DNA of 32,000 nucleotides, from NCBI RefSeq assembly GCF_023273875.1, contig NZ_CP096882.1:1209495-1241494 (forward strand), read 5' to 3'. Position numbers and translations under genes: made by a program. Shown here piece by piece: positions 510-12,051 of the stretch (position 1 is the stretch's first letter; each line of letters begins with the position of its first letter). Below the pieces are notes generated by a model that saw only the letters and a program-made list of their open reading frames with translations, ran no database searches and was not told where the DNA came from. The stretch is from Pseudarthrobacter sp. SSS035. Lineage in GTDB: Bacteria > Actinomycetota > Actinomycetes > Actinomycetales > Micrococcaceae.

Positions 510-1568
510 ATGCCTACCGAAACTTCCCTCAGGGCCGAAGAAACCCTGATTCACGTGCTCTGGATCAACGCAGGGCTGAGCTGCGACGGCGATTCCGTCG
601 CCCTGACAGCGGCTACCCAGCCCAGCGTGGAGGAGATCGCGCTCGGTGCCCTGCCCGGCCTGCCCCGCATTGCCATGCACTGGCCCCTGATCGATTTCGA
701 ATGCGGCCCCCAGGAAGGCGCGGACGACTTCCTCGAGTGGTTCCGCAAGGCGGACCGCGGCGAGCTGGAGCCGTTCGTACTCGTGGTGGAGGGCTCCATC
801 CCCAACGAGAAACTCCATGATCCCGGCGGCTACTGGTGCGGCTTCGGCAACGATCTGGCTACCGGCCAGCCGATCACCACAAGCGAGTGGCTGGACCGGC
901 TGGCACCCAAGGCCACGGCCATCATCGCCGCAGGCACGTGCGCAACGTACGGCGGCATCCATGCAATGGCGGGAAACCCCACCGGCGCCATGGGCGTCCC
1001 CGACTACCTGGGCTATGACTGGAAGTCCAAGGCCGGCATTCCGATCGTCTGCGTGCCCGGGTGCCCCATCCAGCCGGACAACCTCTCCGAAACCATGACC
1101 TACCTGCTGTACCAGGCCACCGGACAGGCCCCGATGATCCCGCTGGATGATGCGCTGCGGCCCACCTGGCTGTTCGGCAAGACGGTCCATGAAGGCTGTG
1201 ACCGGGCAGGCTATTACGAGCAGGGAGACTTCGCCACCGAGTACGGCTCCCCCAAGTGCATCGTCAAGCTCGGATGCTGGGGCCCGGTGGTCAAGTGCAA
1301 CGTGCCCAAGCGCGGCTGGATGAACGGGATCGGCGGCTGCCCCAACGTTGGCGGCATCTGCATCGGCTGCACCATGCCGGGCTTCCCGGACAAGTTCATG
1401 CCGTTTATGGACGAGCCACCCGGCGGCAAGCTCTCAACCAGCACCATCCGCCCTTACGGCGCCGCCATCAGGGCGCTGCGCGGCATCACGACCCACACGC
1501 TGGACCAGGAGCCCAAGTGGCGCCGGCCCGGCACCGAACTGCTGACCGGCGCACGGCGCACGTGGTAA
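510..1568 (+). CDS. hhyS: [NiFe]-hydrogenase small subunit, group 1h/5 (actinobacterial high-affinity type)
   Basis: ATG start with GAAAGAGG upstream; 352 aa. Cys-rich FeS-ligand pattern (GTCATYGG, CVPGCP, GCWGPVVKCNVP, GGCPNVGGICIGC). The N-terminus has no twin-arginine signal. The proximal-cluster motif reads LSCDGDS instead of the canonical CxGC. It lies immediately upstream of the large subunit. Confidence 0.92.
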   Translation: MPTETSLRAEETLIHVLWINAGLSCDGDSVALTAATQPSVEEIALGALPGLPRIAMHWPLIDFECGPQEGADDFLEWFRKADRGELEPFVLVVEGSIPNEKLHDPGGYWCGFGNDLATGQPITTSEWLDRLAPKATAIIAAGTCATYGGIHAMAGNPTGAMGVPDYLGYDWKSKAGIPIVCVPGCPIQPDNLSETMTYLLYQATGQAPMIPLDDALRPTWLFGKTVHEGCDRAGYYEQGDFATEYGSPKCIVKLGCWGPVVKCNVPKRGWMNGIGGCPNVGGICIGCTMPGFPDKFMPFMDEPPGGKLSTSTIRPYGAAIRALRGITTHTLDQEPKWRRPGTELLTGARRTW

Positions 1569-1595
1569 TCCCCTCTTTCCAGACAGGTGAAGAAC

Positions 1596-3389
1596 ATGAC
1601 TTCAACGATTCCTATGCCGTCCGGGAGCGGGACGGACAACAGCAACCTGGTGGAGATGGCCTGGGATCCCATCACCAGGATTGTGGGCAGCCTGGGCATC
1701 TATACCAAAATCGATTTTGCGAACAACCAGGTGGTGGAGTGCAAGAGCACGTCCTCGATCTTCCGCGGATACTCCATCTTTATGAAGGGCAAGGACCCGC
1801 GGGACGCCCACTTCATCACCAGCCGCATCTGCGGAATCTGCGGCGACAACCACGCCACCTGTTCCTGCTACACGCAGAACATGGCCTACGGCGTGAAGCC
1901 ACCGAACCTGGGCGAATGGATCGTCAACCTGGGCGAGGCCGCCGAGTACATGTTTGATCACAACATCTTCCAGGAAAACCTGGTGGGCGTGGACTACTGC
2001 GAAAGGATGGTCTCCGAGACCAACCCCGGCGTCCTGGCCAAGGCAGAAAATACCCGGGCCCCGCATGAAGGCGACCACGGCTACCGAACCATCGCGGACA
2101 TCATGCGCTCGCTGAATCCGTTCACTGGCGAGTTCTACCGCGAGGCCCTGCAGGTCAGCCGGGCCACCCGCGAGATGTTCTGCCTGATGGAAGGCCGCCA
2201 CGTGCACCCGTCCACGCTCTACCCCGGCGGCGTGGGGACCGTGGCTACCATCCAGCTCATGACGGACTACATCACCCGGCTCATGCGGTACGTGGAGTTC
2301 ATGAAGAAGGTCGTGCCGATGCATGACGACCTCTTCGATTTCTTCTACGAGGCGCTCCCTGGCTACGAACAGGTAGGCCTGCGCCGGACCCTGCTTGGCT
2401 GCTGGGGTTCCCTCCAGGACCCTGACTACTGCAACTTCGAGTACAAGGACATGACCCAGTGGGGCCGGAAGATGTTCGTCACCCCGGGCGTGGTGGTGGA
2501 CGGCAAGCTCGTCACCACGGACCTGGTCCGCATCAACCTGGGCATCCGGATCATGCTGGGTTCCTCCTACTACGAGGACTGGGAAGACCAGGAGATGTTT
2601 GTGACCCGCGATCCGCTGGGCAACCCGGTGGACCGCCGCCATCCCTGGAACCAGCACACCAATCCGCGGCCGCAGAAGAGGGACCTGAAGGAGAAGTACA
2701 GCTGGGTGATGTCCCCGCGCTGGTTCGACGGCGAGAACAACCTGGCGCTGGACACCGGCGGCGGCCCGCTGGCGCGGCTCTGGGCCACGTCACTGGCCGG
2801 GCTGGTGGACATCGGCTACATCAAGGCAACCGGCAAGAGCGTCCAGATCAACCTCCCCAAGACCGCCCTCAAAGGTCCTGTTTCCTTTGAATGGAACATC
2901 CCGCAGTGGAGCAACACCCTGGAACGCAACCGCGCCCGTACGTACTTCCAGGCCTATGCGGCTGCGGCGGCGCTGCACTTCGCCGAGAAGGCGCTGGAGG
3001 AAATCCGGGCCGGCCGGACCAAGACCTGGGAGTCGTTCACCGTTCCGGACGAGGCCATCGGCTGCGGCTTCACCGAAGCGGTCCGCGGCGTCCTGTCGCA
3101 CCACATGGTGATCCGGGACGGCAAGATCGCCAACTACCACCCGTACCCTCCGACACCCTGGAACGCCAGCCCCACAGACTCGTCCGGGACCCCCGGCCCC
3201 TACGAGGATGCGGTGCAGGGCCAGCCGATCTTCGAAGAGAACGACCGCGAGCACTTCAAGGGGATCGACATCATGCGGACTGTCCGGAGCTTCGACCCGT
3301 GCCTGCCGTGCGGTGTCCACATGTATCTGGGCAACGGCCAGACCCTGGAAATGCTGCACTCACCCACCCAGACCCTAACCGGCGAGTAA
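1596..3389 (+). CDS. hhyL: [NiFe]-hydrogenase large subunit, group 1h/5
   Basis: N-terminal Ni-binding motif TSRICGICGDNH and C-terminal SFDPCLPCGVH, which are the signatures I recall for group 5/1h. The ORF track starts at GTG 1587. I prefer ATG 1596, which has AGGTGA 5 nt upstream. Confidence 0.93.
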   Translation: MTSTIPMPSGSGTDNSNLVEMAWDPITRIVGSLGIYTKIDFANNQVVECKSTSSIFRGYSIFMKGKDPRDAHFITSRICGICGDNHATCSCYTQNMAYGVKPPNLGEWIVNLGEAAEYMFDHNIFQENLVGVDYCERMVSETNPGVLAKAENTRAPHEGDHGYRTIADIMRSLNPFTGEFYREALQVSRATREMFCLMEGRHVHPSTLYPGGVGTVATIQLMTDYITRLMRYVEFMKKVVPMHDDLFDFFYEALPGYEQVGLRRTLLGCWGSLQDPDYCNFEYKDMTQWGRKMFVTPGVVVDGKLVTTDLVRINLGIRIMLGSSYYEDWEDQEMFVTRDPLGNPVDRRHPWNQHTNPRPQKRDLKEKYSWVMSPRWFDGENNLALDTGGGPLARLWATSLAGLVDIGYIKATGKSVQINLPKTALKGPVSFEWNIPQWSNTLERNRARTYFQAYAAAAALHFAEKALEEIRAGRTKTWESFTVPDEAIGCGFTEAVRGVLSHHMVIRDGKIANYHPYPPTPWNASPTDSSGTPGPYEDAVQGQPIFEENDREHFKGIDIMRTVRSFDPCLPCGVHMYLGNGQTLEMLHSPTQTLTGE

Positions 3390-3395
3390 CCTGCC

Positions 3396-4328
3396 ATGCC
3401 CGGCGCGGACCGGCCGCTGCAGACCGGCGAACTGCAGCCCGGCGAACGGATCGGCACGCTCCTCGACGCCCTCGGCGCCGGCGGGGCGGTGGCCCGCGGC
3501 CGTGCCGAAGACCTGGTACGCCAGGTCACCGACATGTACGGCTCGGGGCTGGAACGCATCCTGGAAATCCTCGATGAGCAGGGAAAGCTCGACGACGGGA
3601 CGCTGGCGGCGCTCGCCTCCGACGAGCTGGTGTCCGGTCTGCTGATCATCCACGGCCTGCATCCCGAGTCGATGGAGACGAGGGTGGCCGGCGCCCTGGA
3701 CAGCGTCCGGCCGTACCTGGGCTCCCACGGCGGGGACGTGGAACTGCTGGGCATCAGCCCGGAGGGCGTGGTGCGGTTGAAGCTCCTCGGCACCTGCCAG
3801 GGCTGCCCGTCGTCGTCCGTCACCTTGAAGTTCGCCGTCGAAGAGGCGATTGAAACAGCGGCCCCGGAGGTGACGGCCATCGAAGTGGTGGAAGCGGAAA
3901 AGCACGCCGCCACCCCTGCCTTCATCCCCCTGGACTCCCTGCTGGTCCGGCTGGACAGCAGAGACCAGCCGGAAGGGTCTTGGGAGCCGGTCCCCGGCGT
4001 GGCCGACCTGGAACCCGGCGAGGTGGCCGGGTTCCAGGTGGGCGGCTATTCGCTGCTGGCCTGCCGGACCGGGCAGGACGTCTACGCCTACCGGGACCAC
4101 TGCCCGCGCTGCGACGGGTCCATGGCGGGCGCCGCCCTGCAGCGCGCCCTCGCCGCCCCCACCGGCGGCGGTCTGCTCCGCTGCCCCACGTGCCGCGCAC
4201 ACTTCGACGTCCGCCAGGCCGGCTCCTGCCTTGAAGACCGGAGCCTGCACCTGGACCCGCTCCCGCTGCTCGTGCGGAGCGGCGTGATGTCCGTGGCCGT
4301 GCCGGTTGCGGCCGGAAAGGGCGGCTGA
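3396..4328 (+). CDS. Hydrogenase-cluster protein: NifU-like (Nfu C-terminal type) domain fused to a Rieske-like/zinc-ribbon Cys4 domain
   Basis: ATG 6 nt after the hhyL stop. The central region (VRPYLGSHGGDVELLGI...LLGTCQGCPSS) is the classic NifU C-terminal CxxC motif. The C-terminal part carries HCPRC...(about 35 aa)...CPTCRAHF, arranged like a Rieske site but with Cys replacing His. Confidence 0.75.
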   Translation: MPGADRPLQTGELQPGERIGTLLDALGAGGAVARGRAEDLVRQVTDMYGSGLERILEILDEQGKLDDGTLAALASDELVSGLLIIHGLHPESMETRVAGALDSVRPYLGSHGGDVELLGISPEGVVRLKLLGTCQGCPSSSVTLKFAVEEAIETAAPEVTAIEVVEAEKHAATPAFIPLDSLLVRLDSRDQPEGSWEPVPGVADLEPGEVAGFQVGGYSLLACRTGQDVYAYRDHCPRCDGSMAGAALQRALAAPTGGGLLRCPTCRAHFDVRQAGSCLEDRSLHLDPLPLLVRSGVMSVAVPVAAGKGG

Positions 4329-4329
4329 C

Positions 4330-5001
4330 GTGGAGGGGCCCGGCCTGCCCGTTGCGCTGCTGCGCCGGATCGCCGCCGCACGGCCGGCGGCGCCCGCCGG
4401 CGAGCGCTGCGAAATGTGCGGGGAGCCCATCGCGGCCGAACACCAGCACGTGGTGGACCTGGACAGCCACGCCATGATGTGCACGTGCCGGCCGTGCTAC
4501 CTGCTTTTCACGGACAGCAACGCCCACCTCCGGTACCGCTCGGTGCCGGACCGGTACCTGTCCTTCCCCGATTTTGAGCTTGGCCCCGGCCAATGGGACG
4601 AGCTGGAGATACCCGTGGGACTGGCATTCTTCTTCCGCAGTTCCAGGATGGAGCGGACGGTTGCGTTTTATCCCGGCCCCGCCGGCGCCACCGAATCCGA
4701 GCTGCCCCTGGACGCGTGGGATGCCGTTATGGTGCAGAATCCCGCCCTGTCCCTTGCAGCTCCGGACACCGAGGCGCTCCTGATCCGTGGACCAGGCAAC
4801 GACCGTCCCGAGGCCGATTGCCACTTGGTCCCCGTGGACGCCTGCTATGAACTGGTAGGCCACCTGCGGCGGCTGTGGCGGGGGTTCGACGGCGGCCAGG
4901 AGGCCCGCAACCAGCTCACCGCGTTCTTCGACAAGGTCAGCGGCCGCAGCAAGCCGGTCCACGAAACCACGCGCAAGTCAGCGTCCGGAGGCCCGCAGTG
5001 A
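4330..5001 (+). CDS. Conserved hydrogenase-cluster hypothetical protein with a CxxC...CxCxxC motif (I recall the label DUF5947 but cannot verify it here)
   Basis: Same-frame ORF 4306-5001. Position 4306 is TTG, while GTG 4330 has GGAAAGGG 6-15 nt upstream and sits 1 nt after the previous stop. Motif: CEMCGEPIAAEHQHVVDLDSHAMMCTCRPCYLLF. Amino-acid composition looks like a real gene. Confidence 0.75.
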   Translation: MEGPGLPVALLRRIAAARPAAPAGERCEMCGEPIAAEHQHVVDLDSHAMMCTCRPCYLLFTDSNAHLRYRSVPDRYLSFPDFELGPGQWDELEIPVGLAFFFRSSRMERTVAFYPGPAGATESELPLDAWDAVMVQNPALSLAAPDTEALLIRGPGNDRPEADCHLVPVDACYELVGHLRRLWRGFDGGQEARNQLTAFFDKVSGRSKPVHETTRKSASGGPQ

Positions 5002-5741
5002 TTGCGCTGGCGTTCGAGGTCCTGGACATCCAGCCCGAACCGTACGCGGCGGCACCCCAGCTCACGGCGACCTTGCGGGTGACCGAGTCCACCGGCGCCG
5101 CTGTGCACGCGATCGCCCTGCGCTGCCAGGTCCGGATCCTGCCCCAGCGCCGCGGCTACTCGCCTGGTGAAGAGGCCGGCCTGCTGGACCTCTTCGGCGA
5201 GCGCAGGCGGTGGCCCACCACGCTGAAGTCCTTCCTCTGGCTGCAATGCAGCACCATGGTCCAGGGCTTCACCGGGGAAACCGAGGTGCGGCTGCCGCTG
5301 CCCTGCACCTTTGATTTCGACGTGTCCGCGGCCAAATACCTGCAGTCCCTGCGTGACGGAATTGTCCCGCTGGAGCTGCTGTTCTCCGGCACGGTCTTTA
5401 CCCGGGGCGAGGCCGGCTTCGGCGTGGAACAGGTGCCCTGGGACCTCGAAGCTCCGTACCGGCTTCCCGTGGACGCCTGGCGCCGGCTGATGGACCAGTA
5501 CTTCCCCAACACCGGTTGGCTCCGCCTGGACCGGGACGTACTGGCCGCCCTGTCGCACTACAAGGCGGCCCGCGGCCTGACGTCGTGGGACGCCACGGTG
5601 GAGAGCCTGCTGGCGGACGCCGCAGCTGTGTCCCCCGCCGCGGTATCCCGGGCAGCGGCAGTCCCGGCGGCGGCAGTCCCGGCGGCGGCAGCCCGGGCAG
5701 CGGCGTCCCAGCCAGCCCTGTCAGGAGACGCTCTGCCATGA
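4998..5741 (+). CDS. Conserved hydrogenase-cluster hypothetical protein (I recall the label DUF6084, unverified) with an Ala-rich pentapeptide-repeat tail
   Basis: GTG 4998 overlaps the upstream stop as GTGA. The translation (VIALAFEVLDIQPEPYAAAPQLTATLRV...) has normal composition. The tracked ORF start at 4875 would overlap the previous gene by 127 nt and adds an Arg/Pro-rich extension, so I rejected it. Confidence 0.7.
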   Translation: MIALAFEVLDIQPEPYAAAPQLTATLRVTESTGAAVHAIALRCQVRILPQRRGYSPGEEAGLLDLFGERRRWPTTLKSFLWLQCSTMVQGFTGETEVRLPLPCTFDFDVSAAKYLQSLRDGIVPLELLFSGTVFTRGEAGFGVEQVPWDLEAPYRLPVDAWRRLMDQYFPNTGWLRLDRDVLAALSHYKAARGLTSWDATVESLLADAAAVSPAAVSRAAAVPAAAVPAAAARAAASQPALSGDALP

Positions 5742-7159
5742 ACATGAGCCTGAGCCTGGCCCGCGCCGTGGCCGATGCCGTCCTTTACGAGGGCTACCTG
5801 CTCTACCCGTACCGCGCGTCCTCGCAGAAGAACCAGGCCCGCTGGCAGTTCGGCATCCTCGGCCCGCCAGGCGCTGCCGCGGCCGGCACCGGCGAGGAAC
5901 CGGATATGTTCGCGGACTGCCTGCTCACCCCGGGCCAGCACGCCGCCATCGAAATCCATCTGCGCTTCCTGCAGCTCCAGAGCCGGTCCGCCGAGAAAAT
6001 GGACGACGACGGCGGGTTCACGGCGGTTGATGAACTTACGGTCGGCGCCTCCCGCTGGCTGAGCTGGGACGAGGCAGCCGAACGGGAAGTCACGCTGGGA
6101 CCGTTCCCCGTCGCAGGGCTCAGCGAGCCTGGGACCGTTCTGCCCGTGGAGGTGCCCGGCGGCGAGGACATCGAGGAACTCCGTGACGCCTCGGGGCGGC
6201 TGGCTGGGAGACTGGTCCGCCGTCGTCGTCCGCTGCAGGGTGAGGTGAGGCTGGCAGCTTCGCCTGCCGGCGGGCCACTGGTCAGGCTGCGCGTCGGGGC
6301 CGCCAATGGGGCTGCGAATGGCTGGACGGATAGCTGGACCAGACAGCACGCCATCGCGGAATCCTTCATCGGCACGCACCTGCTGCTGAGCCTCCAAGAC
6401 GCGGACTTTGTTTCCCTGCTTGAGCCGCCACCGAGCGCCCAGGCCGCTGCGGCCACCTGCACGCAGCACCGGTGCTGGCCCGTCCTGGCCGGTCCGGACG
6501 GGCAGTCGGACGTGCTGCTGGTATCCCCGATCATCCTCTACGACCATCCGGCGGTGGCCCAGGAAAGTTCGGTGGCGCTGTACGACTCCACCGAAATCGA
6601 CGAGATCCTCACACTGCGCGTGCTGACCCTCACCGAGGAGGAGAAGGCCGAAGCCCGCGCCACGGATCCACGGGCCGCAGCCATCATCGACCGGTGCGAG
6701 GCCATGTCCCCGGCGGAGCTGCAGCAGCTGCACGGCATCCTGCGCAACCCGCGTGCCATGGACGGGGCTGAATTGGATGCCGCGTTGGACGAGGTCCCCC
6801 GCGTTGGGGAACTCCAATCCGGACGCCCCGGAGAGGAAGCCGCGTGGTGGACACCCGAAGCCGAAGCCCTGGTCCAGCCGCACCTGGATGCCGTCCTGAT
6901 CAACGGGGTTCCGGTGGCCCGGGGCAGCAGGGTCAGGGTGAATCCAAGCCGGCGCGCCGATGCCCAGGACCTGTTCTTCGCGGGGCAGACGGGACGCGTC
7001 ACCAACGTCCACTTCGATGTTGACGGCAGCACCCATGTGGGCCTGGTCCTCGACCAGGACCCCGCCGCGGACCTCCACGAGGGCTACGGCCGGTCCTTCT
7101 ATTACTCACCGGAAGAGCTCGAACCCCTGGGGCAGGATGGAAAGGAAAGCCCGCCATGA
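5738..7159 (+). CDS. Conserved hydrogenase-cluster hypothetical protein, 473 aa, no recognisable catalytic motif
   Basis: ATG 5738 overlaps the upstream stop as ATGA, with AGGAGA 10 nt upstream. The translation starts MNMSLSLARAVADAVLYEGYLLYPYRASSQKNQARWQFGILGP. The C-terminal 70 aa looks like a small beta domain (RVRVNPSRRADAQDLFFAGQTGRVTNVHFDVDG). Confidence 0.75.
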   Translation: MNMSLSLARAVADAVLYEGYLLYPYRASSQKNQARWQFGILGPPGAAAAGTGEEPDMFADCLLTPGQHAAIEIHLRFLQLQSRSAEKMDDDGGFTAVDELTVGASRWLSWDEAAEREVTLGPFPVAGLSEPGTVLPVEVPGGEDIEELRDASGRLAGRLVRRRRPLQGEVRLAASPAGGPLVRLRVGAANGAANGWTDSWTRQHAIAESFIGTHLLLSLQDADFVSLLEPPPSAQAAAATCTQHRCWPVLAGPDGQSDVLLVSPIILYDHPAVAQESSVALYDSTEIDEILTLRVLTLTEEEKAEARATDPRAAAIIDRCEAMSPAELQQLHGILRNPRAMDGAELDAALDEVPRVGELQSGRPGEEAAWWTPEAEALVQPHLDAVLINGVPVARGSRVRVNPSRRADAQDLFFAGQTGRVTNVHFDVDGSTHVGLVLDQDPAADLHEGYGRSFYYSPEELEPLGQDGKESPP

Positions 7160-7282: not shown

Positions 7283-7783
7283 ATGACTGTGCTGGTGGCC
7301 GGCGTGGGCAACATGTTCATGCGCGACGACGGCTTCGGCCCGGAAGTCGCCCGCCGGCTGGCGTCGGAGGGGGGACTGCCGCCCGGCGTCGAGGTGGCTG
7401 ACTACGGCATCCGCGGCATGCACCTGGCGTACGACCTCCTGACCGGAGTGGACCTGCTGATCCTCGTGGATGCCGTCCCGCCCGAGCGGACCGAGCAAGA
7501 CGGGGCCCCCGGCAACCTCCGCGTGCTCCGGATCCGCAGCGAGGATCTCGACGCCGGCGCCGCCCTGGACCCGCACGGCATGGACCCTGCAGCCGTCCTG
7601 GGGAAGCTCCGATCGCTGGGCGGCGAAGTCCCCGTGACCTACGTGGTGGGCTGCGTTCCGGCCGACGTCACCGAGGGCATCGGCCTGACACCGTCCGTGT
7701 CCGCCGCCGTCCCGGCGGCGATGGTCGCCGTCGTCGATCTCCTCACCCAGCACACCTCCCAGCAGCCCCCCAAGCAGACCTAA
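7283..7783 (+). CDS. Hydrogenase maturation endopeptidase (HyaD/HupD/HybD family)
   Basis: The N-terminal sequence VLVAGVGNMFMRDDGFGPEVARRL is the family signature (GxGNxxxxDDGxG). 166 aa. Located within the hydrogenase operon. Confidence 0.9.
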   Translation: MTVLVAGVGNMFMRDDGFGPEVARRLASEGGLPPGVEVADYGIRGMHLAYDLLTGVDLLILVDAVPPERTEQDGAPGNLRVLRIRSEDLDAGAALDPHGMDPAAVLGKLRSLGGEVPVTYVVGCVPADVTEGIGLTPSVSAAVPAAMVAVVDLLTQHTSQQPPKQT

Positions 7784-7795
7784 GGCGGACCAACC

Positions 7796-8059
7796 ATGTG
7801 CCTCGGAATCCCCGGCCAGGTCATCGGCCCGATCGACGGCTACGGCGACCAGCTGGCCCTGGTGGACGTGGCCGGCGTACAGCGCAAGATCAACATCGGA
7901 CTCCTGGACGAAGGACCACTGCCTCCGGGCAGCTGGGTCCTGATCCACATGGGCTTCGCGCTCGAGCGGGTGGATCCTGCGGGCGCCGAACGGGCCATGA
8001 GCGGCCTGGAACTGATGGGCCAGCCACGGCAACCCGGCGACGACAGCCAAGGCGGTTAG
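7796..8059 (+). CDS. hypC: HypC/HybG/HupF hydrogenase assembly chaperone
   Basis: It starts MCLGIPGQV, with the essential Cys at position 2. 87 aa. It contains the ...GSWVLIHMGFAL... OB-fold motif. Confidence 0.92.
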   Translation: MCLGIPGQVIGPIDGYGDQLALVDVAGVQRKINIGLLDEGPLPPGSWVLIHMGFALERVDPAGAERAMSGLELMGQPRQPGDDSQGG

Positions 8060-8069
8060 GCGGATGGGC

Positions 8070-8098
8070 CGGCGTCCAGAGCGCCGCTCTTTATCGTT
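8070..8098 (+). terminator. Weak candidate intrinsic terminator after hypC
   Basis: A 5-bp GC stem (CGGCG 8070-8074 / CGCCG 8082-8086) with a 7-nt loop, followed by CTCTTTATCGTT. The stem is short, so confidence is low. Confidence 0.25.
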
Positions 8099-8108
8099 CG
8101 AAGGCGAC

Positions 8109-8882
8109 TTAGCGTTCGAGGGCGATGGCGGCGCCGCGATGCTCCACGCCGCTGTTGGCGATCTTGAGGTGCCTGCCGGTGAAGAGCTTGAGTTGCTGCA
8201 GCTGGTGGGGTGTCAGCCGGTCACAGACCCAGTCCCAGTGGAGCGAAACCACGTCACCGGCCGCCAGCCCGGCAATGAAGCCGGTTCCGTTCACGGCATA
8301 CTTGGCGGTCTCCACCACGGGCTCCCCCACCGCCAGGGATATGCCATCCCAGGTCAGGGGCCGCGATTTCACCACGGCTTCGTCCCCGGTGATGGCGAGG
8401 ACCTCACCCCACCGGATCCGGCAGCGGTCCAGGACGTTCAGTGCGGTGGCATACCGGCGGTCATCTCGCAGCAGGCCCAGCCAGGGATAGATTTCGAAGA
8501 CGTGGAAGCTGTGGTGCGGGACGCCGCCGGCGAGGACGCCTTCCACGAGGTGCGGAAACTGCCGGCCGGTGCGTGCCCGGAACCGGTCTTCCATCGAGTT
8601 GCCCATGGTGCTGATGCCCACGGTGTCCAGGAGGCTGTTGCCCACCCAGTACGCCTCCACCACGCGGGCGTCGAGCGGATCGTGGATGCCGTGGGAACCG
8701 GCAATCAGTTCCAGGTAGGGAAAGGCGCCGGCAAAGCCCTTCGCGAGTTCCCGCAGGCCTTGGTCCGTGACTCCGGACTGGCCGTAGTGCAGGAGGGCGT
8801 CACTGTCGGGAGGGCCGCAACTGCCTCGGGAATTGGGCGGGTACGCGTACCGGACAAACAACTGGGCACCATCGACAACCAT
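8109..8882 (-). CDS. Conserved hypothetical protein (I recall the label DUF6390, unverified), convergent on the hydrogenase operon
   Basis: ATG with a strong GGAGAAGGTGG RBS upstream. 257 aa: MVVDGAQLFVRYAYPPNSRGSCGPPDS.... Composition looks like a real gene. The 329-aa + strand ORF 8064-9053 is its antisense shadow. Confidence 0.75.
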   Translation of the reverse strand: MVVDGAQLFVRYAYPPNSRGSCGPPDSDALLHYGQSGVTDQGLRELAKGFAGAFPYLELIAGSHGIHDPLDARVVEAYWVGNSLLDTVGISTMGNSMEDRFRARTGRQFPHLVEGVLAGGVPHHSFHVFEIYPWLGLLRDDRRYATALNVLDRCRIRWGEVLAITGDEAVVKSRPLTWDGISLAVGEPVVETAKYAVNGTGFIAGLAAGDVVSLHWDWVCDRLTPHQLQQLKLFTGRHLKIANSGVEHRGAAIALER

Positions 8883-9034
8883 GGCGTGGCCACCTTCTCC
8901 GCAGGTCTTTTGAACGTAGCACCGCAGTCGGCCCCGGACAAGAGTGGGTTAGCGGCCGCGGAACCACAAGAATCCATCGGCAGCCTCCGCCCACGTACGG
9001 ACGCTGCGCCAACCGAAAGCAGGGGTCACGCACC

Positions 9035-10189
9035 ATGGCAACCACTGATCTGAACCGCCGCGCTGCCCTTCAACTTCTGGTGGCGGGAGGCTCTGCCGCC
9101 CTGCTGGCCGGATGCGCCGGCACCGCTGGTTCCCCGCCGTCGTCGGGCCCTGCAACGAACGGCGGGAACGGTGGCAGCGGCGCGATCAGCATCACCGATC
9201 AGCGCGGCAAAACCCTTACCTTCGCCCGGCCCGTGACCCGGGTGGTGACCATCCCCATGCCGGCGGCGTCTCTGCTGGTGGCGGTGGACCGCACGGCTGA
9301 CCATCTCGCCGCCATGCACAACGCCTCTTGGGTGGCCATGCGCGACGGCATCATGGGCACCATCTTTCCCAAGGCCCTGGAGCTGCCGCACGAGATCGCC
9401 ACCCAGGACTTCACGGCCAACGTGGAGAGCGTGCGGGCCCTGGACCCGGACGTGGTGATCCAGTGGTCCGACGCCCAGCTCATCGACCCGCTGGAAAAGG
9501 CCGGCCTGAACGTCATCGGGCTGACCAACAACGGCAAGCAGGAGGACGTAGATGCGTGGGTGGCCATGTTCGCCGCGATGCTGGGGAAGCCCGAACGCGC
9601 CGCGGATATCAAGACCCGCAGCGACCTGGAACTTGCCGCCGTCAAGAAGCTGGCGGCCGGCCGCAATTCCGCCGGGCCCAGCATCCTGTACTTCAACCGG
9701 TTCACCGGCGGCCTGAAGGTGGCTGCCGCCAATAGCTACAACGATTTCTACATCAAGCTTGTGGGCGGCACAAATCCCGCCACCGGGCCTGACCCGCTGC
9801 AGGGCTCGGGGATGGTGGGCCTGGACGTGGAGCAGGTGCTGCGGTGGGATCCCGAGATCATCCTGCTGGGAAATTTCGACGCCGCTATGCCCCAGGATCT
9901 CTACTCCGACCCCGTCTGGCAGACCGTGTCCGCGGTAAAGAACCGGCGCGTGTACAAGGTGCCGCTGGGTGGATACCGGTGGGATCCCCCCGGGCAGGAA
10001 TCACCGCTGATGTGGCACTGGCTCAGCGACATCGCCTTCCCGCAGCAGCGCTCCCTTCTCCGGAACAAAGTCACCGAGTACTTCGATTTCCTGTACAGCC
10101 ACAAGCCGACGGCGGCGGAACTGGACAAGGTCCTGTGGACTGCGGCCAACGCCGACTCTGACCACTACCGGCAGTTCAATGCTGCATGA
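9035..10189 (+). CDS. ABC transporter substrate-binding lipoprotein, TroA/FecB/BtuF-like (metal-chelate, type II importer class)
   Basis: The N-terminus (NRRAALQLLVAGGSAALLAGCAG) has a twin-arginine motif plus a lipobox Cys. The body resembles periplasmic-binding-protein family 2 (iron-siderophore/cobalamin type). It is followed by a FecCD permease and an ATPase. Confidence 0.8.
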   Translation: MATTDLNRRAALQLLVAGGSAALLAGCAGTAGSPPSSGPATNGGNGGSGAISITDQRGKTLTFARPVTRVVTIPMPAASLLVAVDRTADHLAAMHNASWVAMRDGIMGTIFPKALELPHEIATQDFTANVESVRALDPDVVIQWSDAQLIDPLEKAGLNVIGLTNNGKQEDVDAWVAMFAAMLGKPERAADIKTRSDLELAAVKKLAAGRNSAGPSILYFNRFTGGLKVAAANSYNDFYIKLVGGTNPATGPDPLQGSGMVGLDVEQVLRWDPEIILLGNFDAAMPQDLYSDPVWQTVSAVKNRRVYKVPLGGYRWDPPGQESPLMWHWLSDIAFPQQRSLLRNKVTEYFDFLYSHKPTAAELDKVLWTAANADSDHYRQFNAA

Positions 10190-11315
10190 CGCCAGCGACG
10201 AACGGCTTGAGGCCAGCCGCGCCCGTGCGCCCGGAGAGCCGGACACCGAATCCGCCGGGTCTTACGACGACCGGGACCGTGCGCGGGACGGGCCGCCTGG
10301 ACCATCGGCCCTGAAGCCCATCGCCATCAGCACCATGTTCCTGGTCGCCGTGACCTTGGTGGCCCTGGCCGTGGGCCGCTACAACGTTCCGCTCTGGCAC
10401 GTGGTGCAGATCCTGGTGGGGCAAGTTGTCCCGATCCCCTCCGAGGCCACCGCCACGGAGGAGAATGTGGTGCTCCTGGTCAGGTTGCCGCGCGTGCTGC
10501 TGGCGCTGCTGGTGGGCGGCGGACTGGCGATCGGCGGCGCCGCGCTGCAGGCCATCTTCCACAATCCGCTGGTCAGCCCGGACATCATCGGTGTTTCCGC
10601 GGGCGCATCCTTCGGCGGCTCGCTGGCCATACTCCTGGGGCTGGGGACGTTCGCGCTGATCACCAGTTCCTTCACTTTCGGACTGGTTGCCCTGGCCATG
10701 CTGTTCCTCATCACCTCGGGGCGCGGCGGGACTCCCCTGCTGATGATCGTGCTGGGCGGCGTGGTCACGGGATCGTTCTTCTCCGCGCTGGTAGCCCTGG
10801 TCACCTACATCGCGGATCCCAACACCACGTTGCCGGCCATCGTGTTCTGGCTTCTGGGGAGCGTAGCCACCGCCACCTTCGCCAAGGTGGGAGTGGCGCT
10901 GATTCCCGTGGTCGGGGGCGCCTTGGTGCTCCTGGCATTGCGGTGGCGCATCAACGTGCTCTCGCTGGGCGACGACGACGCCGCCGCGCTGGGGATCCGG
11001 CCGCGGCCGCTGCGGTGGGTGGTCCTCGTTTCGGTGGCACTGATCGTGGCCGGGGCGGTTGCCGTCAGCGGAGCAGTCAGCTGGGTGGGCCTGGTGGTCC
11101 CGCACCTGGCAAGGATGTGGGTGGGACCGGACCATCGGGTCCTGCTGCCGGTGTCCTTCCTCCTGGGCGGCGCGTACATCATGCTCGTGGACACCGTGGC
11201 ACGCACCGCGACGGCGGGCGAGATCCCGCTCGGTGTGCTGACGGCGCTGATCGGCGCGCCCGTGTTTTTTGTGCTGCTGCGCCGGAACCGGGACAGGATC
11301 TGGGAAAGTGCTTGA
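10179..11315 (+). CDS. FecCD/BtuC-family ABC permease
   Basis: Multi-pass hydrophobic protein with typical FecCD segments (LLVGGGLAIGGAALQAIFHNPLVSPDIIGVS, LGDDDAAALGIRP, GAVSWVGLVVPHLAR, PLGVLTALIGAPVFFVLL). The start is uncertain: ATG 10179 overlaps the upstream gene by 11 nt and adds a 52-aa charged N-terminus, and ATG 10335 is an alternative. Confidence 0.85.
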   Translation: MLHDASDERLEASRARAPGEPDTESAGSYDDRDRARDGPPGPSALKPIAISTMFLVAVTLVALAVGRYNVPLWHVVQILVGQVVPIPSEATATEENVVLLVRLPRVLLALLVGGGLAIGGAALQAIFHNPLVSPDIIGVSAGASFGGSLAILLGLGTFALITSSFTFGLVALAMLFLITSGRGGTPLLMIVLGGVVTGSFFSALVALVTYIADPNTTLPAIVFWLLGSVATATFAKVGVALIPVVGGALVLLALRWRINVLSLGDDDAAALGIRPRPLRWVVLVSVALIVAGAVAVSGAVSWVGLVVPHLARMWVGPDHRVLLPVSFLLGGAYIMLVDTVARTATAGEIPLGVLTALIGAPVFFVLLRRNRDRIWESA

Positions 11316-12051
11316 GCTCAACGGTGTGGGCTTCGGCTACGGCCGGGCGGGCTGGGTCTTCCGGGACGTCAGCTTCCAGGTCCTGCCGGGAACCGCCACC
11401 GCAGTCCTGGGTCCCAACGGCAGCGGCAAGACCACGCTGGTGCGCTGCGCCGCCGGGCTGCTGAACCCCGTGGAGGGAAGCGTCACCCGGGCGGCCAGGG
11501 CCGGCTACGTCCCGCAGGCCCATGGCAGTACCTTCGCCTACCGGGCCCTCGATATGGTGCTGATGGGACGAGCCCGGCAGATCGGTCTCTTCCGGTCGCC
11601 CGGCGCCGCGGACCGGGCTGCTTCCCTGGAGGCCATGGACAGGGTGGGCATCGCCGGCCTCAGCAGCAGGTTCTTCCCCACCCTCAGCGGCGGCGAGCAA
11701 CAGCTTGTCCTGATCGCCCGTGCCATCGCCGCCGGCTGCCCCGTCCTGGTGCTGGACGAGCCCGCCACCGGCCTGGACCTGAAGAACCAGGTCCGCGTCC
11801 TGCGGCTGCTGCGCGAACTCATGACGGACGGCATGGCGGTGCTCCTTAGCACGCACCATCCGGACCACGCCCTGTATCTTGCCGACCGGGCCGTTCTGCT
11901 CACTGCCAGCGGACCGCGGACCGGTGATGCTTTGCAGCTCCTGAGCGAGAAGGAACTCACTGCTCTGTACGGCGTGGGCGTCAGCACAATGGCATACGCC
12001 GACGGCCGCAACACCCGCCGGAGCGTAGTAGTGCACTACGGCGGCGAGTGA
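11308..12051 (+). CDS. ABC transporter ATP-binding protein (FecE/FhuC/BtuD-like)
   Basis: Walker [10 protein letters not shown], signature LSGGEQQ, Walker B VLVLDEP. GTG 11308 has AGGA 9 nt upstream and overlaps the permease stop. The tracked start at 11269 would add a Cys/Gly-rich extension. Confidence 0.9.

Follow-up and report, generated by a model that had tools for sequence, protein, structure and literature searches.

A NifU-like, Cys4 Rieske-fold HhyE protein encoded with a group 1h [NiFe] hydrogenase in Pseudarthrobacter and its possible role in hydrogenase assembly

Introduction

Group 1h [NiFe] hydrogenases are the main biological sink of atmospheric H2, and a question of interest is how such enzymes are built in the presence of air and connected to the respiratory chain. 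Here we examine hhyE, a gene located directly downstream of the hydrogenase genes hhyS and hhyL in a 32,000-nucleotide stretch of DNA from Pseudarthrobacter sp. SSS035 (assembly GCF_023273875.1, contig NZ_CP096882.1, positions 1,209,495 to 1,241,494 of the forward strand), which we refer to as the window and to which all SSS035 coordinates below apply. The gene encodes a protein that combines a NifU-like domain with a four-cysteine (Cys4) domain of Rieske fold.

The closest described systems are those of M. smegmatis, for which Islam, Cordero & Greening (2019) reported HhyE (MSMEG_2718) and HucE (MSMEG_2268) as putative iron-sulfur (Fe-S) proteins that accompany group 1h hydrogenases and group 2a hydrogenases, respectively (PMC6883350). 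A NifU-like CxxC motif is common to both proteins, to which HhyE adds two more CxxC motifs ('e.g., rubredoxins') and HucE a Rieske-like motif, given as CxH...CxxC, and the HhyE and HucE clades share approximately 27% identity (PMC6883350). Truncated forms are present in some species, and homologues are encoded by none of the organisms that are free of hydrogenase (PMC6883350). In M. smegmatis, deletion of hhyE abolishes Hhy activity altogether and deletion of hucE does so for Huc activity, which makes HhyE genetically essential for Hhy activity (PMC6883350).

The HhyE family, its motifs and both of its proposed functions have therefore already been described, and the SSS035 locus adds no new kind of system. 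An original prediction, which was made from the letters of the window, had offered the SSS035 gene as a candidate redox partner or dedicated Fe-S scaffold, and in this respect it was anticipated by the published account of HhyE, in which these motifs and both hypotheses already appear, together with the phenotype of a knockout (PMC6883350). Our analysis adds a testable prediction for the metal site of the Cys4 domain, which is proposed to be rubredoxin-like and not [2Fe-2S], and the finding that this domain is dispensable in many lineages. Together, the optional Cys4 domain, the rubredoxin-like spacing of its ligands and the maturation-like rate at which HhyE evolves tilt the published question toward assembly.

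Results

Identity of the gene downstream of hhyL

The hhyE reading frame at positions 3396-4328 (+ strand) is uninterrupted, with an ATG start and a TGA stop, and encodes 310 amino acids. Its start lies 6 nucleotides beyond the stop of hhyL, which agrees with the prediction that the gene directly follows hhyL, and its neighbors are those of a group 1h enzyme. HhyL contains the large-subunit motifs TSRICGICGDNH and SFDPCLPCGVH. When compared to solved structures in the PDB, HhyL scored 1068 bits against HofG of entry 5AA5, with the next solved hydrogenase at approximately 160 bits, and HhyS scored 541 bits against HofK of the same entry, with the next solved hydrogenase at approximately 142 bits. 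Entry 5AA5 is the Cupriavidus necator 'actinobacterial' hydrogenase HofKG, the solved group 1h structure. Because the bit scores to HofG and HofK far exceed those to the next solved relatives, we assign the hydrogenase next to hhyE to group 1h [NiFe] on the basis of these sequence comparisons.

We conclude that the gene is almost certainly the orthologue of HhyE, the putative Fe-S protein encoded after hhyS and hhyL. One Mycolicibacterium genome was found to encode both a copy that is 58% identical to SSS035 HhyE, which is located in the hhy operon, and a 31%-identical paralogue, which is located downstream of a different hydrogenase. This paralogue has Rieske ligands and lies beside a second hydrogenase, and the pair matches the published split between HhyE and HucE. 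By pairwise identity, SSS035 HhyE groups with the hhy-linked Mycolicibacterium genes (55-58%) and not with the HucE-type paralogue (31-32%). The nearest public homologues are Arthrobacter and Pseudarthrobacter proteins that are labelled 'NifU family protein'. Across the whole 5.03-Mb SSS035 genome, hhyE is the sole open reading frame (ORF) with a NifU domain, and hhyL is the sole gene for a [NiFe] large subunit.

Coupling of HhyE to hydrogenase across genomes

The distribution of HhyE was evaluated in a family sample of 151 genomes, of which 10 contain a hydrogenase and 141 do not. Full-length HhyE was present in all 10 hydrogenase-bearing genomes, always adjacent to HhyL, and in none of the 141 hydrogenase-free genomes, among which three weak matches to the NifU domain alone were detected. 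A second set comprised 80 loci from Actinomycetota genomes, including Mycolicibacterium, and in each of them the gene at the hhyE operon position, beside group 1h genes, encodes a protein that is 52-92% identical to SSS035 HhyE. The gene order hhyS-hhyL-hhyE-DUF5947-DUF6084-orf-protease-hypC is preserved in these loci wherever the contig allows. Homologues are thus not equally common in genomes that lack hydrogenases, an outcome that had been named beforehand as one that would speak against a dedicated role.

Similar coupling was observed in a phylum sample of 301 genomes, for which we defined a strong match as E <= 1e-30. All 31 genomes with a strong match to HhyE also encode a [NiFe] large subunit, and where an HhyL-type gene is present (37 genomes), an HhyE-type gene lies directly 3' of it on the same contig in 35 cases. 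Short stand-alone Nfu proteins, or bare NifU-domain proteins, are widespread in this sample, with or without a hydrogenase. We reject the view that HhyE is itself a general housekeeping Nfu, as 141 of the 151 family genomes are without a full-length homologue and HhyE occurs exactly where the hydrogenase occurs.

In one genome of the family sample (G042:C114:10840-11792), the match to HhyE is in two pieces, which correspond to residues 15-247 and 255-307; a frameshift or a faulty assembly may be the cause, or the gene may be split. The match in G306 is likewise split (residues 18-107 and 105-307).

Domain architecture

An AlphaFold2 model of HhyE was made from 94 diverse homologues and has a mean predicted local distance difference test (pLDDT) score of 88. 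Residues 15-85 of the model are helical, 93-165 adopt the alpha/beta fold of an Nfu domain, and 194-303 form a domain composed wholly of beta structure, which a linker modeled with low confidence (166-193) joins to the Nfu domain. The helices of the N-terminal domain span residues 15-27, 31-61, 67-75 and 77-85 (pLDDT 81-98) and are followed by the motif H86-G-L-H89-P90, in which H86 and H89 are each at least 90% conserved. We found no Pfam match for this domain, no match below E 0.1 when its profile (A3) was searched against PDB sequences, and no fold relative when the domain alone was modeled with AlphaFold2 (pLDDT 85) and compared to the PDB with Foldseek, for which the best match reached only E 4.5. 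Tandem duplicates of the domain are present in the homologues P0122, P0133 and P0146, with each copy ending in a sequence like H-x-L-H-P; the duplication suggests, at the level of sequence, that the domain may be an independent interaction module.

The second domain matches PF01106 (NifU) at residues 98-163 with E 1.1e-21 and 77 bits, compared to a cut-off of 27, and it matches the PDB entries 2z51, 2jnv, 1xhj and NFU1 2m5o with E-values of 7e-17 to 1e-9. The motif takes the form G-x-C134-x-x-C137-P-S-S, with Q and G between the cysteines, and the stretch LLGTCQGCPSS aligns on LQGACGSCPSS of Arabidopsis CnfU (2z51, E 7e-17), which upholds the initial assignment of this stretch as an Nfu/NifU CxxC scaffold motif. 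In the alignments to 2z51, 2jnv and 1xhj, H111 replaces the Asp of the usual DGG motif. HhyE falls far below the equivalog cut-offs for NfuA and NifU (TIGR03341, 41.8 bits vs 269; TIGR02000, 31.1 bits vs 273), and judged by these sequence models it has only the Nfu domain in common with NfuA and NifU and is neither of the two. Pfam recognizes no membrane or oligomerisation domain in HhyE.

The Pfam Rieske family (PF00355) matches the C-terminal domain marginally at residues 195-282, with 21.2 bits vs a cut-off of 20.3, and the Rieske_2 model scores 22 bits, which is under its cut-off of 27. Foldseek matches of the predicted structure of the domain include 3c0d, which is NirD, and four Rieske ferredoxins (3gce, 3dqy, 2qpz and 1fqt), with E-values of 2e-7 to 8e-6. 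Superposition on the Rieske ferredoxins and NirD resulted in target-normalised template modeling (TM) scores of 0.77-0.83 with root-mean-square deviations of 2.2-2.8 A. Structure prediction, which had been proposed as a check on the existence of a C-terminal Cys4 Rieske-like module, is therefore in line with such a module. In some Arthrobacter variants of HhyE that are 431-448 amino acids in length (L010:6001-7294, P0036, P0053 and P0054), a Pro/Ala-rich, low-complexity tail of approximately 120 amino acids follows the Rieske-fold domain, and the SSS035 copy does not contain this tail.

Metal-ligand positions

HhyE contains eight cysteines, at positions 134, 137, 223, 236, 239, 263, 266 and 278. 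Among 94-107 homologues with 34-52% identity, C134, C137, C236, C239, C263 and C266 are 93-100% conserved, and C223 (approximately 48%) and C278 (approximately 21%) are poorly conserved. The motif GxCxxCPSS, with C134 and C137, is kept in 104 of 107 homologues, and H111 is invariant among the HhyE homologues that were aligned. The four conserved cysteines of the C-terminal domain form the motifs C236-P-R-C239 and C263-P-T-C266.

The spacing between these motifs had been estimated at about 35 residues and likened to that of a Rieske site, and in this the estimate was off: C236 is 27 residues from C263, with 23 residues between C239 and C263, and the loop between the motifs exceeds that of Rieske ferredoxins and of the HucE-type paralogue by approximately 6 residues. 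In a profile of 41 C-terminal domains aligned to Rieske ferredoxins, C236 and C263 coincide with the first and second Cys, respectively, and C266 coincides with the second His, whereas C239 lies one residue past the position of the first His, and the same register is obtained against the HucE-type paralogue. The proposal that Cys sits where Rieske proteins have His is therefore accurate for the second motif only, in which C266 falls exactly on the His of CPxH. HhyE does not contain the CxH...CxxH ligand set, as neither His position is occupied by His, and H235 and H269 in the loops are variable. The domain has a Rieske fold, but it does not have a Rieske center.

A precedent for this arrangement is the Rieske-type ferredoxin ARF of Sulfolobus solfataricus, variants of which have been reviewed (PMC2946596). 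The H64C variant holds a [2Fe-2S] cluster of low potential that has three Cys ligands and one His ligand, cluster assembly largely fails in the H44C/H64C variant (CxC...CxxC), and the H44I/K45C/H64C variant (CxxC...CxxC) binds Fe or Zn in a mononuclear Fe(Cys)4 site that resembles rubredoxin (PMC2946596). The CxxC...CxxC spacing of HhyE is that of the H44I/K45C/H64C variant, including the shift of the second ligand by one residue. The loops that bind metal in Rieske proteins also share their geometry with the knuckles of rubredoxin and zinc ribbons (PMC2946596), and the profile of the C-terminal domain shows weak matches to zinc fingers, LIM domains and PHD domains (E 3e-4 to 0.1). Because the ligand spacing of HhyE equals that of the triple mutant, and because the H44C/H64C variant barely assembles a cluster, we rank a mononuclear site above an all-Cys [2Fe-2S] cluster, and by this analogy Fe or Zn bound by the four cysteines appears more likely. 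An all-Cys [2Fe-2S] cluster was considered for this domain and placed below the mononuclear site, given that ARF H44C/H64C is largely without a cluster and that the CxxC...CxxC variant takes up mononuclear Fe or Zn. The original prediction of a lower-potential cluster or a Zn ribbon fares accordingly, in that a simple Rieske cluster with Cys in place of His does not describe the site, and mononuclear Fe or Zn ranks first. This ranking draws on a single engineered archaeal protein, and the loop in HhyE that is longer by 6 residues could alter the center that is bound.

The C-terminal 117 amino acids were also compared to 5.8 billion proteins in a search for stand-alone Cys4 Rieske-like proteins, which returned 18 short matches, mostly HhyE fragments from short contigs, although this word-based search may miss distant relatives. 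At the level of sequence, the Cys4 Rieske-fold module thus seems to be confined to HhyE.

Short forms without the Cys4 domain

Among the 35 group 1h operons of the phylum sample, 11 encode a short HhyE without the Cys4 domain, which corresponds to about one third. For eight of these, we read the DNA and found that the ORF ends no more than approximately 45 amino acids past the NifU domain and is followed by the DUF5947 gene. Plasmid pHG1 of C. necator also encodes a short form, which is 192 amino acids in length. The Cys4 domain is therefore optional and dispensable in many lineages. None of the chains in the PDB, including those of 5AA5, matches HhyE beyond generic NifU domains.

Two observations concern individual short-form loci. 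One short variant (L090:144-704, from G206, a 9.2-Mb genome) has G-C-G-C-G, a CxC motif, at the place of the Nfu CxxC motif and is without the PYLGSHGG stretch, such that the Nfu carrier motif of the short forms appears, from its sequence, not to be universally intact. On pHG1, the gene directly 5' of hofG (L098:1995-3050; NC_005241.1 59962-61017) is annotated as 'hydrogenase expression protein HypE'. Because this gene lies directly before hofG and is 1056 nucleotides in length, so that its product of approximately 351 amino acids is as long as the HofK chain in 5AA5, we take it to be most likely hofK, the gene for the small subunit, in which case the public annotation would be an error.

Features of the locus

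The features of the hydrogenase locus and of HhyE are listed in Table 1. A GTG that is the possible start of the DUF5947 gene lies 1 nucleotide beyond the hhyE stop. The DUF5947 gene is directly 3' of hhyE in all 80 loci and likewise in C. necator pHG1, and it belongs to the PHG067/MSMEG_2717 class, which has also been suggested as an electron acceptor for hydrogenase (PMC6883350). On the 3' side of hypC, ORFs overlap on both strands (8064-9053, + strand; 8109-8882, - strand), none of which has a Pfam match; in many other loci, the match to the product of the + strand ORF at 8064-9053 lies on the opposite strand, which leaves the orientation of the gene uncertain. Just beyond the hydrogenase cluster, positions 9035-12051 encode an ATP-binding cassette (ABC) importer with a Peripla_BP_2 binding protein, a FecCD permease and an ATPase.

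Table 1. Coordinates of the hydrogenase genes in the window and of the domains and motifs within hhyE.
Feature	Position	Strand	Evidence or remark
hhyS, group 1h [NiFe] hydrogenase small subunit	510..1568	+	Pfam NiFe_hyd_SSU_C and Oxidored_q6
hhyL, group 1h [NiFe] hydrogenase large subunit	1587..3389	+	Pfam NiFeSe_Hases
hhyE (P0001), 310-amino-acid NifU-like / Cys4 Rieske-fold protein	3396..4328	+	Open ORF, Pfam, synteny
N-terminal four-helix domain, residues 15-90	3438..3665	+	AlphaFold2 model; ends in H86-G-L-H89-P90
Motif H86-G-L-H89-P90	3651..3665	+
Nfu/NifU-type domain, residues 93-165	3672..3890	+	PF01106, PDB matches, Foldseek 2z51
H111	3726..3728	+
Nfu motif C134-Q-G-C137	3795..3806	+
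Flexible linker, residues 166-193	3891..3974	+	pLDDT 62-69; median identity 15%
Rieske-fold beta domain, residues 194-303	3975..4304	+	Foldseek, profile alignment
Motif C236-P-R-C239	4101..4112	+
Motif C263-P-T-C266	4182..4193	+
DUF5947 gene	4330..5001	+	Pfam DUF5947, E 8e-73; listed ORF from TTG 4306, GTG at 4330
DUF6084 gene, start uncertain	4875..5741	+	Pfam DUF6084, E 2e-93; kept in 79 of 80 loci
Conserved hypothetical operon gene, start uncertain	5516..7159	+	Without Pfam match; kept in 77 of 80 loci
Hydrogenase maturation endopeptidase	7283..7783	+	Pfam HycI and TIGR00072, E 1e-32
hypC/hupF-type chaperone	7796..8059	+	Pfam HupF_HypC and TIGR00074

Discussion

Assembly of the hydrogenase as the favored role of HhyE

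HhyE has a three-domain architecture with conserved ligands, is strictly coupled to the hydrogenase in genomes and carries a Cys4 domain that is optional. On balance, we lean toward the view that HhyE is a hydrogenase-dedicated Fe-S delivery or assembly factor and not a link in the electron path. The metal content of HhyE and the direction in which clusters or electrons flow are what we infer in the following scheme. The Nfu-type domain would carry a labile cluster, by known Nfu chemistry a [4Fe-4S] held between two monomers by their C134xxC137 motifs, which HhyE would pass to apo-HhyS while the enzyme is assembled in the aerobic cell. The family-specific N-terminal helical domain with its HGLHP motif, together with H111 beside the CxxC loop, may fit the carrier to this single client. 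The C-terminal domain would hold a mononuclear center of the rubredoxin type, with Fe(Cys)4 or Zn, and serve as an optional auxiliary module, which could assist with one-electron redox chemistry or guard against O2 while clusters are inserted (compare the rubredoxin-like HoxR of group 1d hydrogenases), or which could be a structural docking knob.

The main alternative is that HhyE is the physiological first electron acceptor, such that the distal cluster of HhyS would hand electrons to the NifU-like cluster and/or the Cys4 center, from which they would reach menaquinone. We regard this route as tenable but unlikely. The Nfu two-Cys motif is known to hold a labile, transferable cluster that is bridged between two monomers, which suits delivery more than steady electron transfer. 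In favor of the acceptor, the conserved Cys motifs of HhyE could hold redox centers. Against it stands the absence of the Cys4 domain from about one third of the sampled group 1h operons, including that of C. necator pHG1, whose HofKG is the solved group 1h enzyme, and this is one reason that assembly is favored. Another is provided by the deletion mutants, as cells without hhyE or hucE show no activity even in zymograms with nitroblue tetrazolium (NBT) (PMC6883350), which should bypass a missing acceptor. Furthermore, Huc as purified is made up of HucS, HucL and HucM and is able to reduce menaquinone analogues, and HucE is unmentioned (Huc structure paper), which likewise argues for assembly. 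The DUF5947 protein encoded next to HhyE is a competing candidate for the acceptor.

Rates of divergence point in the same direction. Over 65 loci outside the family, the median identity to the SSS035 protein is 56.5% for HhyE. The two hydrogenase subunits HhyS and HhyL reach 86-87%, and the values for DUF5947, DUF6084, the protease and HypC are 53-62%. The best-conserved domain of HhyE is the NifU domain, with a median of 58%, and the other two domains are at approximately 39%. HhyE therefore diverges at the rate of maturation genes, with the NifU domain as its best-kept part, which supports assembly, and it evolves much faster than the hydrogenase core that it would need as a docking surface to accept electrons. 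The two functions offered for the gene at the outset, first electron acceptor or delivery of clusters, are thus separated to the extent that delivery or assembly is favored, and the acceptor is weakened by the optional Cys4 domain and the NBT-negative mutants.

Several points weigh against assembly. Islam et al. favor electron transfer, citing native gels, on which HhyE travels together with HhyS and HhyL, and the position of hhyE in the structural and not the maturation operon (PMC6883350). Consistent with their preference, hhyE is presumably co-transcribed with the structural genes, from which it is separated by the short gap after hhyL, group 1h operons are without a cytochrome b (PMC6883350), and the strict coupling of HhyE to the hydrogenase is what an acceptor would also show. 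The loss of NBT staining could also be explained by a complex that is unstable without one of its structural subunits, the argument from Huc is by homology only (27-32% identity), such that Hhy may differ, and the argument from evolutionary rate is weak when taken alone. For HhyE/HucE biochemistry or Hhy structure, we found nothing in the literature after 2019 beyond PMC6883350, the Cordero 2019 preprint and the Huc structure paper.

A further alternative is that HhyE mainly serves as a structural scaffold or tether of the Hhy complex, for oligomerisation or membrane association, with the Cys4 site as a structural zinc knuckle and the carrier function of the NifU-like domain lost. Such a role is listed as possible by Islam et al. 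(PMC6883350), and it would fit the geometric likeness of Rieske loops to rubredoxin and zinc-ribbon knuckles (PMC2946596), the weak matches of the C-terminal profile to zinc fingers, LIM domains and PHD domains, and a modular N-terminal helical domain that can be duplicated. However, retention of GxCxxCPSS in nearly all of the diverse homologues, together with the high conservation of the NifU domain, speaks for retained cluster chemistry, three distinct sets of conserved metal ligands are not obviously needed by a scaffold, and HhyE is without a membrane or oligomerisation domain that Pfam recognizes. We consider a mainly structural role to be improbable.

Returning to assembly, a more specific version can be imagined, which we offer as speculation that is rather unlikely to be correct. 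The C-terminal domain would represent a natural switch from a Rieske to a rubredoxin site, with a mononuclear Fe(Cys)4 redox center on a Rieske scaffold, fused to an Nfu carrier whose cluster has an extra His ligand (H111, possibly H86/H89). The fusion would be complete in itself as a device for 'reductive cluster insertion', and it would make, in air, the chain of Asp-ligated [4Fe-4S] type that O2-insensitive hydrogenases contain. If true, such a device would found a mechanistic class of its own among Fe-S maturases, one that is client-specific, and HucE (Rieske-type) and HhyE (rubredoxin-type) would illustrate natural switching of the metal site within one fold.

Comparison with known systems

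Several described proteins resemble HhyE or parts of it and differ from it in defined ways. With the Nfu carriers NfuA, NFU1 and plant CnfU (PF01106), HhyE shares the alpha/beta fold and the GxCxxCPSS motif, but it has His for the Asp of DGG, an N-terminal domain of its own, a Rieske-fold C-terminal domain and dedication to a single operon. With the Rieske-type ferredoxins and NirD (PF00355/PF13806), it shares the beta-sandwich fold (TM approximately 0.8) and metal-binding loops at the same positions, whereas the His ligands are absent and the loop between the motifs is longer by 6 residues. HoxR/HupI of group 1d hydrogenases likewise supplies a rubredoxin-like Cys4 center within the operon of an O2-tolerant uptake hydrogenase, and HoxR has been proposed to function in the aerobic maturation of the small-subunit Fe-S clusters (Fritsch et al. 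2014, cited in PMC6883350). In contrast to HhyE, HoxR has a true rubredoxin fold in place of a Rieske scaffold and no Nfu domain, and the parallel is functional only.

HucE (the MSMEG_2268 class, with the group 2a hydrogenase Huc) is closer, as it features the same helical N-terminal domain, NifU-like domain with H-G-G and CxxC, and Rieske-fold C-terminal domain, and residues 3-302 align with 31% identity. The examined copy differs from HhyE in that it keeps the Rieske-type ligands C-A-H ... C-P-W-H, its loop is shorter by 6 residues, and it is encoded a few genes 3' of a hydrogenase that is 25-29% identical to HhyS/HhyL. Closest of all is M. smegmatis HhyE, which occupies the same place directly 3' of hhyS-hhyL, has the same NifU-like CxxC motif with two C-terminal CxxC motifs, and is found only in hydrogenase-bearing genomes. 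Using congeneric Mycolicibacterium loci to stand in for M. smegmatis, we found that SSS035 HhyE is 54-58% identical to the syntenic Mycolicibacterium/Mycobacterium genes. Taken together, these comparisons reveal no difference of substance between SSS035 HhyE and MSMEG_2718, and the SSS035 copy is best described as the Micrococcaceae orthologue of that protein.

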